A stretch of DNA of 64,000 nucleotides from an uncultured Methanosarcinales archaeon. GTDB taxonomy: Archaea; Nanobdellota; Nanobdellia; Woesearchaeales; CAZYIM01. The stretch is from positions 1-64,000 of the forward strand of contig CAZYIM010000005.1 in assembly GCA_964647565.1 (NCBI GenBank), in the 5' to 3' direction. Of this stretch, positions 3,384 through 10,732 are shown in pieces (the first letter of the stretch is position 1; each line of letters opens with the position of its first letter). Below the pieces are notes generated by a model. The model was not told the DNA's origin. It saw only the letters and a program-made list of their open reading frames with translations, and did not search any database. The translations under genes were made by a program, and so were the position numbers.

Positions 3384-4466
3384 TTATGGCAGCCAGCTTT
3401 TCTGATTCTTAAGTTTAGCCGGTAAATATTTGGTGATTACAAAGTTAAGACCCCATTTTGCAAGTGCTTGCTGTTCTGCACGGACTTTCATCTGCAGCTG
3501 TTGCTTAATGGCTTTGGCCCAGGGTCTATGCTGGTGCACAAATGGATCGTTCTTGATAGCATCCTTTCCTCTCTTGATATCCACTTCTTTTAGAGGATGT
3601 GTCGGCAACTTGTAGTCAACGATATCTTGCGGTGTAATACCTATGAATTGGGCTTTGGGCACACAGAAATACTTGTTGATATGAGCGGCATTTCCAGAAC
3701 CTACCTTAAGAGTTCTGTAGATATTCATATATCCATAGAAATCCCCGTCTGTAAAGACAAAAACAGGAAGATTAAGATCATCACTTAATCTTCTGATAAA
3801 CCTTCGACAGGCCCGCGTTGGTACACCTCCCATGCTGATAAGTATGCATTTAGCTTTTTTCCAATAATTGTGCTTGACTAATCTTTGAAACATACCTGCC
3901 GTCTCTATGGCCAAAATAAACTCTGCATTAGCCTCAAACTTGAGTTCTTCTACACTTGATGGGATAGAATATGCTCCGCTACCGAACTTGGTACAGTCTA
4001 TTCTAAGTTCTTTGCCAGTATCAGGATTTTTATCAATTACAATAAGTCTGCCAGCCACATCACCGCCTTTTTCTTCAGGTGTGAATCCCAGCCGTTCCCT
4101 GTTCACACCAAACATAGCCTCAACATCATCCATAACAGTATCTGATTCTGGCTGTTCATTAAAACGGGCATCACCCCAATTTTTGGAGACATAATAAGCC
4201 TCTCTTTTGGTGGCCATATCCTTACTCTCAATAATTTCTTTTGAAAGGGACATCATCTTCAGAGTCTGGGCAAAGGTCTTAACAGTGTTAGCTGTCAAGG
4301 TCCTAGACTTGTATTGGCCTTTTAATTCAAAATATCCATCAGCTTCGTTATAGCTTACATTACTAAGAGATCTTATTGGGGATGTGAGTTCTGGTTTTTT
4401 CATGACGTTAATTTTTTTATATATGTCTAGGCATTTCTGCTTGATCTTTTCAATGACTTCATTCAT
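3384..4466 (-). CDS. top6A: DNA topoisomerase VI subunit A
   Basis: TKREAYY catalytic Tyr region, [14 protein letters not shown] Toprim, AEQQAL. Confidence 0.97.
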
Positions 4467-6219
4467 CCTTACTCACCTCCTCATCATTTTTATCATCTGC
4501 ATCCTTTGAATCCTCTTTTTTACCTATAGCAGCAAATTTTGCATCAAACTCAACATTCTTGGTCTCATCAAATTCCACATCTTCAACCACACCTCGCTGC
4601 ATCTCAAGCATCTCCTCCAACTTCTTGATCAGAATTTCTTTATCAGACTCTTCTTTTCCTAAAATACCAACCAATGCCTCTGCCAGATGGGGGATATATT
4701 TCTCAATGTAGCTTCTCTTCTTCAGTTCATCATGTACTCTTCTTTTCTTAGAAACATATCTTGACAGGTTTCTTCCAACCTCTTGTAATGCAAGCTTGAT
4801 TTCTTTAATGATATCTGGATAATGCGCAATAGCCTCTTTTGCTTCGCTGGTGAATGGAACCCACACTGAGGCTATATGAACCAGTATTACAATAGGTCCC
4901 TGGGGCAGGCTTCCAGATGACTGAGAAAGGCCATATCCCCTCCAAGAGGTCTTGGTTATTGAATCTGTCATTGCACAGGCTCCCTGCTGATAAAGCAAGG
5001 GCACCCTATTAGCAAACCTCATAATTCTTGCAGAGCCCTCTTTTTCAAGAGCTCCTCCATATGCTAAGGCTGTTTCAATCACAAAGGGATTACCCCTATA
5101 TACACTCGGACTCCTACTGCAACTGGTATAAAACTCTGCATTAATTTCTTTTTTCAATCCTTTTTCAAGAAGATTATGCCCTATTGGACTTATGCAGTCA
5201 GATGGCGGCGACATTATTCTCGTATTTTTTATTCCCTTCATCAACTGCTCCGCCATTTCCCTACTGACCTTGGATGGCTTTGTCTTTGGAAGGATCGCTG
5301 CATTCTCAAGAATTTCATTGGCTGATTTAGATCCAACTCTGCTAAACTCCTCCATCAGGAATCTTTTTATGGTTTTAGACTGGGTCCAGCGAAGCATTTT
5401 CATCATTATTCCAAGCTCCACCCCGTACGGATGCGGCTTTATCTCAACAGGATGCTTAGGTTTCTGTTCTGTTGCCCTGGGAAATATAATCTGCTCTGCT
5501 TTAGGATTAACATATATGATAGTTGCATGCGGATTAACAATTGCAGTCTGCTTAAGATATTCATCAACAGACTGGGTTCCTTTGAGATAACTTGCCTCAA
5601 TATCCATCTCGACACGAGTTCCATGATCCTTAGACCACTCCTTGATATCCTCTTTAACTATATTCGGTTTGTTCTTGGTGGTATCTATACGAAGTTCATA
5701 ATAATGAGCAGGCTCATTGGCATGTATCTTACTCAGTATTTTGGCAGGTCTACCAGTTGTAAGCTGACCGTACATGACAGACGCAGATATGCCTATGCCC
5801 TGCTGGCCTCTTGATTGAGACAGCTTATGGAATTTACTACCGTAAAGCAGCTTAGCAAAAATCTTAGGTATCTGTGCTTTTACAATACCCGGGCCATTAT
5901 CCTCTATAATTACCCTGAATCTATCTTCGCCCATATCAATTAACTCTATTGCTAGTTCAGGCAGTATTTCTGCATCCTCACACGCATCCAAAGCATTGTC
6001 AACAGCTTCTTTTACAGTTGTCAAAAGAGCCTTTCTCTTATTATCAAAGCCTAAAAGATGCCTATTCTTCTCAAAGAATTCAGCAATGGAAATATCCCTC
6101 TGCTTCTTGGCCAATTCGTGGGCCTTGGGCATTTTTTTTTCATGTGTTGGATCTGTTTGTGGTTTAACCTCTGCCTCTTTTTTTGAAAAATCATTCAAGT
6201 CCATAGTTGTTTCTGCCAT
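4459..6219 (-). CDS. top6B: DNA topoisomerase VI subunit B
   Basis: [31 protein letters not shown] motifs; [10 protein letters not shown]. Confidence 0.97.
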
Positions 6220-6352
6220 AATAAGTGAGGCTAGGATTGAGTTAATAAACTTTTCTAGTCTAGAGACAATAAATTTTCAAATGGATCCTACCACTCTTTT
6301 CCAAACATTTAAATACTATTCTCTACACTTAAAATCTAAAAGAGGGGTGAAG

Positions 6353-6892
6353 TTGGTCAAGTCTGAAATTGTCAATTATATTAAAAAGCACTTGAATGAA
6401 GGCTATGATATTAAGATTATACGTGACTGGCTGATCCATCACGGATATTCTCAAAAGGATGTGGACGATGCTGTCGACAGTATCTACGCCATACAAACCA
6501 AATCTCCTGCTTCAAAGAAGGAAGACAATCCTGTTGAACATAGACACTTGAGCAAGAAATCATTGATATCGATTGTTGTGACAGTGCTCATTCTTTTTTT
6601 AGTAGTAATAGCTATAACACTAATAGTCAGGTTAGGAAATATAAATCAACCGGTAGGTGAAGATGTTGAAGAACCGATTACTCCACCACCTGAAGAACCT
6701 TTAGTGACAGAATTCAAGTTCACACCTTCTGGCGTCACCGAGTGCATCAATGTCTCGGATTCAGAAAGGATTAATTGTTATTATAAATTCTTCGAGATGT
6801 CGGGCTTGGATGCTTGTGAAGAAATTGAAGACCGTGAAGAAAAAAACTTCTGTTATTCTACAAAAGAATTCTATCTTTTAAAAGAAATTTGA
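6353..6892 (+). CDS. Single-pass membrane protein: small N-terminal helical domain, Pro-rich linker, Cys-containing C-terminal domain
   Basis: Start moved to TTG after GAGGGGTG SD, since the ORF-track start overlaps top6B; one TM helix; C-x8/9-CY repeats. Confidence 0.65.
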   Translation: MVKSEIVNYIKKHLNEGYDIKIIRDWLIHHGYSQKDVDDAVDSIYAIQTKSPASKKEDNPVEHRHLSKKSLISIVVTVLILFLVVIAITLIVRLGNINQPVGEDVEEPITPPPEEPLVTEFKFTPSGVTECINVSDSERINCYYKFFEMSGLDACEEIEDREEKNFCYSTKEFYLLKEI

Positions 6893-7419
6893 TCGTCTGG
6901 TTTTATATCCCTTATTTTTCCTTCTAAAGATTTATATACATTAGAATGAGGGGCGCCTCTAAGCAAAGCCTCTATTGCTTTTCGGACCATCATAATCTTT
7001 TCAGGCCTGCCAATTACACCGACAGTATTGCCATATACAGAAATCCTGCAATCTGAGAGTATCTCCAGAGTTGATCTTGATTTACCTTTTTTACCAATAA
7101 TACGGCCTCTTAATCGTTCAATAGCATTCTTGCCCTTTGCAAATTCTTTTATAGGCACAAGCTCAAATGTATAGTCCTGTTTAAGCAGAGTAAATGCGAC
7201 GTCAGGATTAAAGCCTCTGCCAATGGCCTTGATAACTGATTGGAGGGTGAATAACTTAAGAGGATCTGATCCTGTTATCTCTATCTCACCCTCTTTAGAA
7301 TCTACATTTATCTTTGAACCTGTAAGTTCCTCAAGCTCTCTTTTAACTTCACCGCCTGTACCAATAAATACAGCTATTCTATCACGGGGTATTTTCATGA
7401 GATGTGAATATTCTTCCAT
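6871..7419 (-). CDS. KH-domain rRNA-processing protein (Dim2/Pno1-like)
   Basis: IGTGG, AIGRGF, GRIIGKKGK, GAPHSNVY. Confidence 0.93.
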   Translation of the reverse strand: MEEYSHLMKIPRDRIAVFIGTGGEVKRELEELTGSKINVDSKEGEIEITGSDPLKLFTLQSVIKAIGRGFNPDVAFTLLKQDYTFELVPIKEFAKGKNAIERLRGRIIGKKGKSRSTLEILSDCRISVYGNTVGVIGRPEKIMMVRKAIEALLRGAPHSNVYKSLEGKIRDIKPDDQISFKR

Positions 7420-7562
7420 AAAATTTGTTGAATTAGAACGGGTTTATAAGTTTTTCCAGATGAATATACAAGAAATAAAAGTTGAGAAATTAACACAGTT
7501 AATTCCAGTCGTCTTTAGAATTATAAAACCAATTGAAACAAAGAAAAAAAAAGAAAAAACAA

Positions 7563-8843
7563 TTAAAGATCGTCAGAAACAACAATAGTGACTCTTGAAG
7601 ATGTCTTCACCTTGGAATCCATTCCCACAAGGAAGCACAACTGTGCTCTCTCTGCAATAGCCAAAAGATCCTTATCTATGATTCCATCAAAGATTACTGC
7701 ATATACTCCTGTTTTCAGGCTTCTAATAGTACTCTGAAGCTCTGATACAGGCACTTTACCGAGAATATTGAGCTTGTTGTCAAGCACATAGGCTCCTCTT
7801 GTGCCAACCAGATTCTCGAGCATCTCACCAAAGACTTTCTTCTCATTGTCTGTAACCTTTTTCTTTGCAACCGGCGCTTTTGGACTTGGCGGCGGTGCAG
7901 AATTCCTGCTACCTCCGGAAGAAGAAGGGGGTTTTCTCGAGTCTCTGCCTTTGTCTCTATCTTTATTATTTCTAAAATTCTTACCGCCTGACTTAGCGTC
8001 TGAGGCTGTTATGCTTGGATCCAGTTTGACCTGCTCTGCAGCTATTCTGCTCCTCAATGCTTTGTGAATCTCTTTCTTTGTTAACTCCTCGACTTCTTTG
8101 CCATCTGGAGCTTTGGTCACAAAATCTATCTCTGTTGCAGAGAGTAGTTCTTGAATTATGAGGTCTCCACCTCTGTCTCCGTCTACAAATGCAGTAATTG
8201 TTTTCTTTCTACCAAGGTTTATTATAGTATCTGGCACGCTGGTACCATTCACAGAGATTACATTCTTAAATCCATGTTTTAAGAGATTCAGTACATCTGC
8301 TCTTCCTTCCACTACTACGAGTTCGTCGCTTTCATCTACTGCAGGTCCCGCGGGCAGTCTCTCTTTACCATATTCCTGAATCTCCATGACTCTGACTGAA
8401 TAAGCAACTTCGTCCGCCAACTCTTGTGAGTCTGGCATGACCGAATCCATAAGATTCTTGAGCAGCGTCTTGGCTCTATCAATAACAAACTGTCTCTTGG
8501 ATATCCTTACGTCTTCTATACTTCCTACTTTGATCTTTGCGTTGCAGGGGCCTATCCTCTGGATAACCTCCAATGATGCACCCACAATGGCAGTCTCTGC
8601 CTTGTCAAGTGAACTTGGAATTACTATGGATCCTTCTGTTTTGCCCCCTTTTGTTGATACATCAACTTCAATCCGCCCAATCCTTCCTGATCTTTGAAGT
8701 TCCCTAAGTTCAAGATCTGCTCCTAAAAGACCCTCTGTCTGCCCGAAAATTGCACCTATAACATCGGGTTTATCTACAACTCCTTCGATCTGGATAGTGG
8801 CATGAATGATGTATTTTGCTGATACTTGTGCTATCTTTGCCAT
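7563..8843 (-). CDS. dnaG: Archaeal DnaG (Toprim; exosome-associated in characterised archaea)
   Basis: DVIGAIFGQTEGLLG, VVEGRADV, DGDRGG. Confidence 0.96.
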   Translation of the reverse strand: MAKIAQVSAKYIIHATIQIEGVVDKPDVIGAIFGQTEGLLGADLELRELQRSGRIGRIEVDVSTKGGKTEGSIVIPSSLDKAETAIVGASLEVIQRIGPCNAKIKVGSIEDVRISKRQFVIDRAKTLLKNLMDSVMPDSQELADEVAYSVRVMEIQEYGKERLPAGPAVDESDELVVVEGRADVLNLLKHGFKNVISVNGTSVPDTIINLGRKKTITAFVDGDRGGDLIIQELLSATEIDFVTKAPDGKEVEELTKKEIHKALRSRIAAEQVKLDPSITASDAKSGGKNFRNNKDRDKGRDSRKPPSSSGGSRNSAPPPSPKAPVAKKKVTDNEKKVFGEMLENLVGTRGAYVLDNKLNILGKVPVSELQSTIRSLKTGVYAVIFDGIIDKDLLAIAERAQLCFLVGMDSKVKTSSRVTIVVSDDL

Positions 8844-8914
8844 GCTAATCGCCTCCTAGCGTCTATTTAACCTAATTTTTAGCCATCAATCTTAGAAGAA
8901 GTATTATTATAGAC

Positions 8915-8974
8915 CTAACCAATCAACCTAATTAAATACATATTCAAATTATTCAAAGTGAATGCGGTGATCAT
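8915..8974 (-). CDS. Putative 19-aa uORF in the dnaG leader (MITAFTLNNLNMYLIRLIG)
   Basis: GGAGGT SD at 8981-8986, ATG at 8974, TAG at 8915-8917. Confidence 0.4.
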   Translation of the reverse strand: MITAFTLNNLNMYLIRLIG

Positions 8975-9085
8975 AATAATACCTCCCTTTACAGAACAAG
9001 CCATTTCAAACAATAATGTAAATCCAATATTTGATGTGAGTGAATGTGATAAACTTGTTCAGTGATAAGTAATGACTATGATTTT

Positions 9086-9225
9086 GTCGCCCGAAACACT
9101 AACTCCCAAGCTCATTGCTTGACTTTGTCGTAAGCTCCCGTGAGTACTCTCGTGTCGGGCTGGATTACGCAAGAGTGTCTTGTTCTCCTTGCTAAACCTT
9201 AGTTCTACTCGAACAAGGACCCATT
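9086..9225 (-). ncRNA. Putative structured RNA in the long dnaG 5' leader
   Basis: GC-richer block with complementary segments (GCCCGACAC/GUGUUUCGGGC; CUUGUUC/GAACAAG; GCUU-ACGAC-AAA-GUC-AAGC) just downstream of a BRE/TATA. Confidence 0.45.
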
Positions 9226-9254
9226 TGCATAATATGACAAGGAATTAATATGTC

Positions 9255-9270
9255 TTTAAAAAAGTTTCGC
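9255..9270 (-). promoter_or_regulatory. BRE-TATA promoter for the dnaG leader transcript
   Basis: GCGAAACTTTTTTAAA on the minus strand. Confidence 0.55.
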
Positions 9271-9331
9271 TTTCTTATCGACGGGAAACAACCCATTTAT
9301 AAGTGAAATAAGAATAAAAAAAAGAAAAAAA

Positions 9332-10732
9332 TCAGGCCGGAACTTCACAACCAGTAAGCTGACCTAATCTCTGAAATGTCTGTACTCCAGGATAAGATGC
9401 GCCATCGACATACCAAGTCGGATATCCCGGTATATCAACCTCATCACACAAAGGATTCTGCACTTCAGGAGTCTCCTCTGCTATACACTCTACATGATCC
9501 AGATACTGCAATGCATCTCCAAACAAGTTTTTCTGATCTTTGCAGTGACCACACCAGTAGGCGGTATAAAGGGTTGCACCATTTTCCTTAAGGCACTTGG
9601 CAAACTCTACTACATCCTCTCCAGCTACAACAGGCCCGTCTGGCTGATCGGGTTGATCAGGTTCATCAGGTTCATCAGGTTCATCAGGTTCATCCTCACC
9701 ATCATAAAAAATCTCCACAGTTGTAGCAGCACTAAGCTCAGTGACATACTCATTGAAGGCCTCTACTTGTTTTTCCTGTTTTAGGAAACCCTCAATCATC
9801 TCAGAAGCCTCCTCCAAAGGTATAGTAGATTCAGGAAGCTTCTCAAGGGTCTGTATGATGTGGAAGCCGTATTGTGTCTCAACAGTTTGAATCTCATCTA
9901 CATCCATAGTAAAAGCAGCAGCCTCAAACTCTGGCACCATCTGTCCTTTTGGGAAGGTATATTCACCACAATTAGCCACGCTTCCAGGATCTTCGGAGTA
10001 TTCTGTGACTAAGTCACAGAAATTTGAGAAATCCTCTGCAATCAAAGCCTCAACATCAGCTGCTAATGCTTCAGCTTCTTCTTTAGTTCTCGACTCAAGA
10101 CCTATAAGTATATGTCGGGCTCTTACCTGCTCAGGCTGGACAAAGAACATAGGATTTTCGTCATAAAATGTCTGTATCTCTTCATCAGTAAGCTCAATCA
10201 TAGATGTGATCTCCTGTTCAATAGACTTGTTAAAGAACATATCCTTCTGAATCAATGCCCTAACTTCTTCCATAGTCAATCCCTGAGCCACGAGATTCTG
10301 CTCAAACTGCTCCATAGTCATCATATTTCTCTGAATAAGATCATCGATGGTAGCATCCACTTCAGCAGCAGTCACTTCAATGCCAAGCTCATTAGCCTTC
10401 TGAAGAAGCATAGTTTCATTAATTAAAAGCTGTAATATGGTCATCTTTGAGATCGGAGTGGGCGATGCCGCATTCAAACGCTCATAACGCCAATCAACAT
10501 CAGACATTAAGATTGGCTGACCATTAACAGTGGCTGCAACATCATCACTAGGGCCAGCTTTAAACAAATCTGGCTTAAGGATTGCGACAATAACCACCGC
10601 GATTATAATTATTCCAAGCACCAGCCACAATATCCATGAGATATCAGACTCTTTTTTTTCTTTTTTTGGTGCATGCTTTGCCTTATGTGTAGATTTAGAT
10701 TTCTTTGATTTCTTTTTTACCAAAAATATCAC
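9332..10732 (-). CDS. Membrane-anchored SurA/PrsA-like parvulin PPIase fused to a thioredoxin-like CxxC domain
   Basis: TM anchor; AATVNG, VRARHILI, GQMVPEFEAAAF, ETQYGFHII; C-terminal AYWCGHC...GYPTW. Confidence 0.88.
   Translation of the reverse strand: MIFLVKKKSKKSKSTHKAKHAPKKEKKESDISWILWLVLGIIIIAVVIVAILKPDLFKAGPSDDVAATVNGQPILMSDVDWRYERLNAASPTPISKMTILQLLINETMLLQKANELGIEVTAAEVDATIDDLIQRNMMTMEQFEQNLVAQGLTMEEVRALIQKDMFFNKSIEQEITSMIELTDEEIQTFYDENPMFFVQPEQVRARHILIGLESRTKEEAEALAADVEALIAEDFSNFCDLVTEYSEDPGSVANCGEYTFPKGQMVPEFEAAAFTMDVDEIQTVETQYGFHIIQTLEKLPESTIPLEEASEMIEGFLKQEKQVEAFNEYVTELSAATTVEIFYDGEDEPDEPDEPDEPDQPDQPDGPVVAGEDVVEFAKCLKENGATLYTAYWCGHCKDQKNLFGDALQYLDHVECIAEETPEVQNPLCDEVDIPGYPTWYVDGASYPGVQTFQRLGQLTGCEVPA
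9643..9693 (-). repeat. 9-bp tandem repeat encoding an EPD/QPD linker
   Basis: (tcaggttca)n; protein EPDEPDEPDEPDQPDQPD. Confidence 0.85.

Follow-up and report, generated by a model that had tools for sequence, protein, structure and literature searches.

A two-hairpin RNA upstream of dnaG in a Woesearchaeales archaeon, very probably a box H/ACA guide, and a conserved element in the dnaG leader downstream of it

The window analyzed here is a stretch of 64,000 nucleotides from the genome of an uncultured archaeon of the order Woesearchaeales (assembly GCA_964647565.1, contig CAZYIM010000005.1; genome G000 below). On its minus strand, a PPIase-like gene (9332-10732) lies 5' of an archaeal dnaG gene (8843-7563) that encodes a protein of 426 amino acids (NCBIfam PRK04031, 491 bits). 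The dnaG ATG is at 8843, preceded by a Shine-Dalgarno sequence, AGGAGG, at 8852-8857. The gap between the two genes contains a BRE/TATA-like promoter sequence (9253-9268, minus strand), from which transcription is predicted to start at about 9232, where hairpin 1 of the RNA described below begins. An earlier note on this DNA, made from the letters alone, had placed a GC-rich structured RNA in a long dnaG leader behind this promoter; its coordinates hold, with the BRE/TATA-like stretch at 9268-9253 and the dnaG start codon as given above. A sigma-70 promoter scan was set aside as inapplicable to archaea. The PPIase-like gene (minus strand) encodes a membrane-anchored SurA/parvulin PPIase that an acidic, proline-rich repeat joins to a thioredoxin-like CxxC domain. 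On the 3' side of dnaG (3384-8843, minus strand), a gene for a Dim2/Pno1-like KH protein is followed by the genes for topoisomerase VI B and A.

Positions 9233-9085 of the minus strand fold into two hairpins that can be compared with the plan and spacing rules of archaeal box H/ACA RNAs as set out in PMC4652768 and PMC7075261. Hairpin 1 (9164-9233, minus strand) has a lower stem (9233-9225/9172-9164), an internal loop formed by a 5' pocket (9224-9218) and a 3' pocket (9178-9173), an upper stem (9217-9211/9185-9179), and a K-turn with GA at 9210-9209, a bulge at 9190-9188, and GA at 9187-9186. Hairpin 2 (9089-9160, minus strand) has a lower stem (9160-9152/9099-9089), a 5' pocket (9151-9145) and a 3' pocket (9104-9100), whose strands are near-invariant among relatives, an upper stem (9144-9138/9111-9105), and a K-turn with GA at 9137-9136, a bulge at 9116-9114, and GA at 9113-9112. 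The lower stems covary and are 9 bp long in both hairpins (7 to 9 bp in the H/ACA plan), both K-turns consist of tandem GA pairs and a 3-nt bulge, and the GA stem of each hairpin has nine pairs and one stacked mismatch, compared with an expected 9 to 10. A K-loop takes the place of a K-turn in one relative (L030). Three pairings proposed in the earlier note fall into place here: CUUGUUC/GAACAAG (9217-9211 with 9185-9179) is the covarying upper stem of hairpin 1, GCCCGACAC/GUGUUUCGGGC (9160-9152 with 9099-9089) forms the lower stem of the second hairpin, and the inner GCUU..GAC-AAA-GUC-AAGC is the canonical stem with its apical loop above the K-turn.

The ACA box of hairpin 2 (9085-9087, minus strand) and the guide base paired with C1914 of 23S rRNA are 16 nt apart; the corresponding box-to-target distance is 14 to 15 nt for hairpin 1, and the rule is 15 ± 1. 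Among 76 automatically cut loci, a few of them miscut, the box of hairpin 2 reads ACA in 44, AUA in 7, AAA in 1, NCA in 17, and otherwise in 7, so that an ANA box follows hairpin 2 in 52 of 76. The hinge box of hairpin 1 (9161-9163, minus strand) is ACA in 9 of 13 aligned relatives. In the window it is CCA, which is not ANA and is a point against the guide reading; a hinge ANA was described as necessary for the 5' hairpin of a haloarchaeal guide (Majumder 2020, PMC7075261).

Folding of the minus strand from 9080 to 9235 gave −44.7 kcal/mol (z, −2.6; 3 of 200 shuffles did as well), with a z value of −2.0 for the plus strand. In alignments of relatives, 88.6% of cells are paired in hairpin 2, with 39 two-sided changes compared with 13 after shuffling (0 of 500 shuffles), and 82.3% are paired in hairpin 1, with 47 compared with 16 (0 of 500). 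The main helices of both hairpins are thus conserved and covarying, which is the outcome for which the earlier note had suggested looking in relatives. A search of Rfam 15, another of its suggestions, gave nothing at gathering score anywhere in the window and two chance matches at E ≤ 10 within 8800-9350; none of the Rfam H/ACA families matched the RNA even at E ≤ 10, and ARAGORN found no match in the stretch upstream of dnaG. The note's statement that no known RNA family could be assigned is mistaken at the level of class, very probably that of the archaeal box H/ACA RNAs, although none of the models in Rfam matches the RNA.

Conservation was examined in 61 genomes, namely, the genome itself and 60 others of the same order, 56 of which contain dnaG. 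A conserved hairpin was found upstream of dnaG in nearly all of the best 30 dnaG loci, and a covariance model of hairpin 2 (R2) was built from 22 of these. R2 matches 54 of the 61 genomes, once each, and 53 of the matches lie 88 to 565 nt 5' of dnaG on the same strand. In the remaining one (G054) the match is on another contig than dnaG; two genomes (G033 and G047) have dnaG without a match, and the five genomes without dnaG also have no match. A direct search of 31 loci revealed diverged copies of hairpin 2 near dnaG in 5 more of them (E < 0.004). In a class-wide sample, R2 matches at least 43 of 151 genomes. Hairpin 1 is optional: a two-hairpin pattern matches 91 of 301 genomes of the order, and its reversed control matches none. 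This total and one of the pocket 1 counts include genomes flagged as unpublished, which no other claim uses. A pattern scan of all GTDB genomes showed both hairpins in a Woesearchaeota record (L156), among the 80 matches listed; the pattern is too loose for the other matches, which were taken as chance.

Several features of these loci vary among relatives. PPIase-like 3' ends similar to that in the window lie upstream of the RNA in L002, L003, and L007, and a small GC-rich hairpin repeat starting CACCUCUUUUUCCC recurs 5' of it in L013, L019, L021, and L006. A small ORF that looks TOPRIM-like by eye lies between the RNA and dnaG in class members L277, L297, and L299. In distant members of the class (L132 [G070], L273, L278, L283, L285, and L287), the RNA starts with the heptamer GGCAAGG. 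The pockets of hairpin 1 are quite different in L014 (G024), L132, L273, L278, L283, L285, and L121, and that of G024 looks, by eye, complementary to the surroundings of E. coli U2506. Such differences between lineages suggest that the 5' module has been swapped while hairpin 2 was kept.

To assign targets, the organism's own rRNAs were assembled and all 1,108 uridines were scored against both pockets. E. coli numbering was taken from an E. coli 23S gene, which we take to be 2 nt shorter than the K-12 length. The best site of pocket 2 is 23S U1915 in helix 69, with 10 Watson-Crick pairs (4 + 6) that leave U1915-A1916-U1917-A1918 unpaired; its runner-up, position 299 of the organism's own LSU rRNA, scored 9.5 compared with 10. 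The best site of pocket 1 is U2555 in the A-loop, with 12 pairs, followed by U2554. Shuffled pockets equaled these best scores in 2 of 100 trials each. The rRNA genes lie outside the window (G000:C15; L031 and L032) and contain short insertions, near 720-830 in the 16S and near 2485-2515 and 2570-2605 in the 23S sequence (positions in the extracted sequences), which look like archaeal rRNA introns. The insertion near 2570-2605 is directly 5' of the A-loop target.

Very probably, then, the RNA marks helix 69 and the A-loop for pseudouridylation. Each pocket would pair with the 23S rRNA segments that flank the target uridine, L7Ae would bind each K-turn, and Cbf5-Nop10 would bind the lower stem and the box; we infer both the protein binding and the modifications. 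Hairpin 2 is the predicted guide for U1915 and U1917. The four-base U-A-U-A gap corresponds to the "UNUN" arrangement of SL2 of the Haloferax volcanii guide sR-h45, for which reason hairpin 2 should make both helix 69 pseudouridines. With this geometry between a 4-bp and a 6-bp duplex, Psi1915 would be formed first and Psi1917 second. Both modifications are described as conserved in H. volcanii (PMC2584109). In about 15 of 91 genomes (counted by eye), hairpin 1 has C instead of A as the guide base opposite U2554, and in the account of Majumder 2020 (PMC7075261) the modified uridine is the 5'-most unpaired one. Taken together, these two points favor U2554, which fits all lineages; the product of hairpin 1 would on balance be Psi2554, and Psi2555 is a serious candidate of lower standing.

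Further evidence for these targets is that the pockets and the rRNA vary together (tallies made by hand). At the 3' strand of helix 69, 28 of the 29 genomes with rRNA ACUCUC have guide GAGAG, the exception being G058; 7 of the 8 with AUUCUC have GAGAA, and the other one, G038, retains GAGAG and thus a G·U pair; 6 of the 7 with ACCUUC have AAGG (G081 has a wobble only); and the single genome with ACCCUC has GAGGG. Several of these helix 69 variants were foretold from the guide sequence before the rRNA was retrieved. Two strict helix 69 patterns were found in 0 of 10 genomes and a looser pattern in 14 of 43, with G095 dropped as spurious looking. At one position of the 3' strand of the A-loop, all 5 genomes with rRNA U, which represent three families, have A in the pocket 1 guide, and rRNA C occurs with guide G in 41 of 44 (mismatches in G089, G289, and G281). 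This tally left out G316, G246, G346, and G356, whose matches were truncated or out of register, G274, which has two versions of the rRNA, G210, whose rRNA row was not listed, G315, which is unpublished, and G024 and G165 (other hairpin 1 pockets); G215, G430, and G042 have the rRNA variant and lack hairpin 1. A Fisher P value of about 1e-5 overstates the association because related genomes are not independent, and we estimate that there were perhaps three or four independent guide-target changes per pocket.

Pairing with rRNA explains the conserved unpaired bases of the GC-rich structure, and this bears directly on the proposal that the structure is instead a cis-acting switch, that is, a riboswitch or a DnaG-bound autoregulatory leader in which alternative folds control dnaG. 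Its position agrees with such a role, since it lies 5' of dnaG in 53 of the 54 genomes of the order with a match, mostly with no terminator in between, and the K-turns could allow L7Ae to act on the transcript. However, the invariant unpaired bases follow changes in the rRNA, hairpin 1 is optional, and one genome (G070) carries the same RNA away from dnaG with a T-run of its own. The pairing that the earlier note had called mutually exclusive, GCAAGGAG/CUCUUGC, is a possible fold here, yet relatives do not conserve it: it is 65% paired compared with 62% after shuffling, and 201 of 500 shuffles matched its covariation. We consider a switch in the GC-rich part very improbable and return to the guide RNA.

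The case for a guide, built from structure, conservation, complementarity and covariation of pockets and rRNA, and three of the four proteins, is strengthened by a known relative. Nanoarchaeum equitans has a single two-hairpin H/ACA RNA, which has been sequenced (Randau 2012, PMC3491384). R2 matches G070 at 58.4 bits, and the G070 sequence is letter for letter that of the N. equitans RNA in the supplement of that study. Both RNAs have two K-turn hairpins and a three-base hinge box, and their second hairpins are homologous, with the same lower stem and pockets; the N. equitans RNA differs in the pockets of hairpin 1 and in its location, as it adjoins tyrS, with its own terminator, and not dnaG. 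We conclude with high confidence that 9233-9085 (minus strand) encodes a box H/ACA sRNA of two hairpins, whose hairpin 2 is orthologous to that of the single N. equitans H/ACA RNA, with K-turns for L7Ae and pockets for 23S helix 69 and the A-loop. The targets given by RNAsnoop for stem 2 of the N. equitans RNA are 23S U614 and 16S U796 (Randau 2012, PMC3491384). Helix 69 of G070 pairs fully with the hairpin 2 pockets of G070, and the joint variation of both pockets and the rRNA from genome to genome argues against the RNAsnoop targets. The published stem 2 targets are probably wrong, with helix 69 as the likely target instead.

Other archaeal guides resemble the RNA less closely. H. volcanii sR-h45, as described by Majumder 2020 (PMC7075261), also has two hairpins, and its 3' hairpin makes both helix 69 pseudouridines, leaves four target bases unpaired, and needs its ACA; its 5' hairpin, in contrast, guides Psi2605 and not an A-loop site, its hairpins are 56 nt apart, and Gar1 is present. 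The comparison is one of architecture and guide function. Pyrococcus Pab40/Pf7 and the third motif of Archaeoglobus Afu-4 are also guides for a helix 69 uridine (PMC2377435 and PMC2584109), but they have three hairpins, one helix 69 site was made in vitro, and the Rfam search gave no match to the present RNA. For the A-loop, none of the P. abyssi sites in the published Table 1 maps there if an inferred offset of about 92 is right. In yeast, the A-loop target of snR10 is the equivalent of U2554. This eukaryotic RNA, which acts in the peptidyl transferase center (PMC1766470) and is without a K-turn, is a possible functional counterpart of hairpin 1. A literature search turned up no paper that describes the RNA from Woesearchaeota, an A-loop guide in archaea, the loss of Gar1 among DPANN archaea, or a motif in dnaG leaders; it was a weak search, as most subscription papers fell outside it and "H/ACA" is poorly searchable, and the further archaeal guides listed in the supplements of PMC4652768 and PMC2584109 were outside the search for an A-loop guide.

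The genome encodes Cbf5 (NF003280, 425 bits; cutoff, 242), Nop10, and L7Ae, and Nop10 is present in 42 of the 43 genomes of the class with an R2 match. Gar1 (PF04410) was found in 0 of the 61 genomes of the order and 0 of 5 others, in a search of limited sensitivity, as its control at E ≤ 0.01 found Gar1 in 3 of the 4 archaea named for it; none was seen among the ORFs beside tfb. Class-wide loss or strong divergence of Gar1 is possible. Classic Sulfolobus particles retain some activity without Gar1 (PMC11077068).

We also asked how the guide relates to the dnaG transcript. A TATA-like box lies about 25 to 30 nt 5' of hairpin 1, and in loci with only hairpin 2 the nearest TATA-like word is 28 to 38 nt upstream in 19 of 45. 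T-runs after the box are rare (4 of 76 loci), and the dnaG leaders are poorer in TATA-like words than shuffled sequences (37 of 76, compared with 47.6), which makes read-through from the guide into dnaG likely. The dnaG transcript probably begins with the guide RNA, which would then be excised from it or else would end by a signal that was not recognized; we infer transcription, cotranscription, and release. Contigs from public runs (X1 to X3, mostly less than 95% alike, with shares of 0.04 to 0.06) were rejected as a sign of expression: those that pile up on hairpin 2 are conserved parts of relatives, and a probable DNA run piles up there too.

Between the box and the dnaG start codon lies a second conserved element. 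In the window, unit 1 (8992-9062, minus strand) has a stem (9060-9052/9002-8994) with the consensus AGAACAAG/CUUGUUCU and a UCAY-rich stretch (9053-9033) on the 5' side of its loop; unit 2 (8895-8987, minus strand) has a second purine/pyrimidine stem and a UCAY cluster at 8971-8958, and by eye, comparable folds are present in many of the relatives whose leaders are long. In 76 leaders, UCAU and UCAC are the top 4-mers between the box and the start codon (z, ∼14), and CUUGUUCU is enriched as well. UCAY words occur at 2.8 per 100 nt, compared with 0.7 in other intergenic regions, and are concentrated in the 5'-most 30 nt of the loop. The AGAACAAG/CUUGUUCU stem encloses 39 to 126 nt in 35 of 76 leaders; changes in its 5' arm preserve pairing through G·U, and its ninth pair covaries (28 of 35, compared with 17.1 after shuffling; 0 of 5,000). 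A looser detection rule, written after the leaders had been seen, found the unit in 37 of 76 dnaG leaders, compared with 0 of 76 antisense and 0 to 2 of 76 shuffled leaders and 4 of 769 intergenic regions of the genome, dnaG included. The three other matches in the genome look like chance, and a regulon was rejected; by eye, the genes that they precede are one like pyrB, one like DHH, and one unknown. By a strict rule, two tandem units are present in only 4 of 76 leaders, and unit 2 of the window was not scored; a second, similar stem often occurs 3' of the first, nearer the start codon. The unit typically begins 14 to 60 nt 3' of the box, its 3' arm lies 14 to 397 nt from the start codon, and two genomes without a detected guide (G047 and G075) also have the unit 5' of dnaG.

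We read this element as a putative protein-binding site in the dnaG mRNA, and our best guess for the protein, ahead of a processing signal and a KH protein site, is DnaG itself. In this tentative but possible account, DnaG, through its RNA-binding N-terminal domain, would bind the UCAY loop held open by the stem and either repress itself or direct the exosome to the transcript. The counts of the unit in leaders against antisense and shuffled sequences, the covarying ninth pair, and the enrichment of UCAY are in keeping with it, as are the presence of the unit at dnaG in G047 and G075 and the genes for Rrp4, Rrp41, and Rrp42-like proteins in the genome. On the other hand, the detection rule was post hoc, the variable distance to the start codon implies no fixed Shine-Dalgarno masking, and Sulfolobus DnaG is described as preferring poly(A), not UCAY (PMC4227792 and PMC7667871). 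The autoregulatory leader of the earlier note, which is not supported for the GC-rich 140 nt given the rRNA pairing and the unconserved alternative fold, may apply to the AU-rich 9062-8895, a part that the note left undescribed.

A rather unlikely alternative is that the unit serves in processing or partial termination, by which the H/ACA RNA would be released or the new 5' end of the mRNA shielded. The unit usually starts shortly past the box (14 to 60 nt), and dnaG-linked guides seldom have T-run terminators (4 of 76), with the stand-alone G070 guide having a T-run and no unit; against this, the unit also occurs where no guide is detectable (G047 and G075), and the second copy is often nearer the start codon. 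Still more doubtful is a KH domain protein, such as the Dim2/Pno1-like one encoded after dnaG (arCOG04150, 7419-6871), as the ligand of the UCAY words. KH domains bind UCAY and Dim2 binds the 16S 3' end, whose AUCAC the UCAY words resemble. However, of 30 loci, only 3 have the KH gene downstream of dnaG in the same orientation and 8 have it anywhere in the retrieved region, and it was rejected as a conserved operon partner of dnaG.

Guide-target covariation assigns targets to the H/ACA RNA that a large class of uncultured archaea carries, and it suggests that the published predictions for N. equitans, a cultured organism, should give way to helix 69. It also points to a probable archaeal A-loop pseudouridine guide and a possible Gar1-less particle. 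The leader unit is an uncatalogued conserved RNA element tied to archaeal dnaG, and it offers a handle on the regulation of DnaG as an exosome subunit and on the excision of archaeal guide RNAs from mRNA leaders. In a broader picture, to which we assign a low probability, the main H/ACA guide across much of the class Nanoarchaeia would be the 5' end of the dnaG mRNA and would act in a three-protein particle without Gar1, including an archaeal A-loop guide (Psi2554/2555); the stem with its UCAY-rich loop would then be a new family of cis elements by which exosome-bound DnaG controls both how much DnaG is made and how the guide is released.
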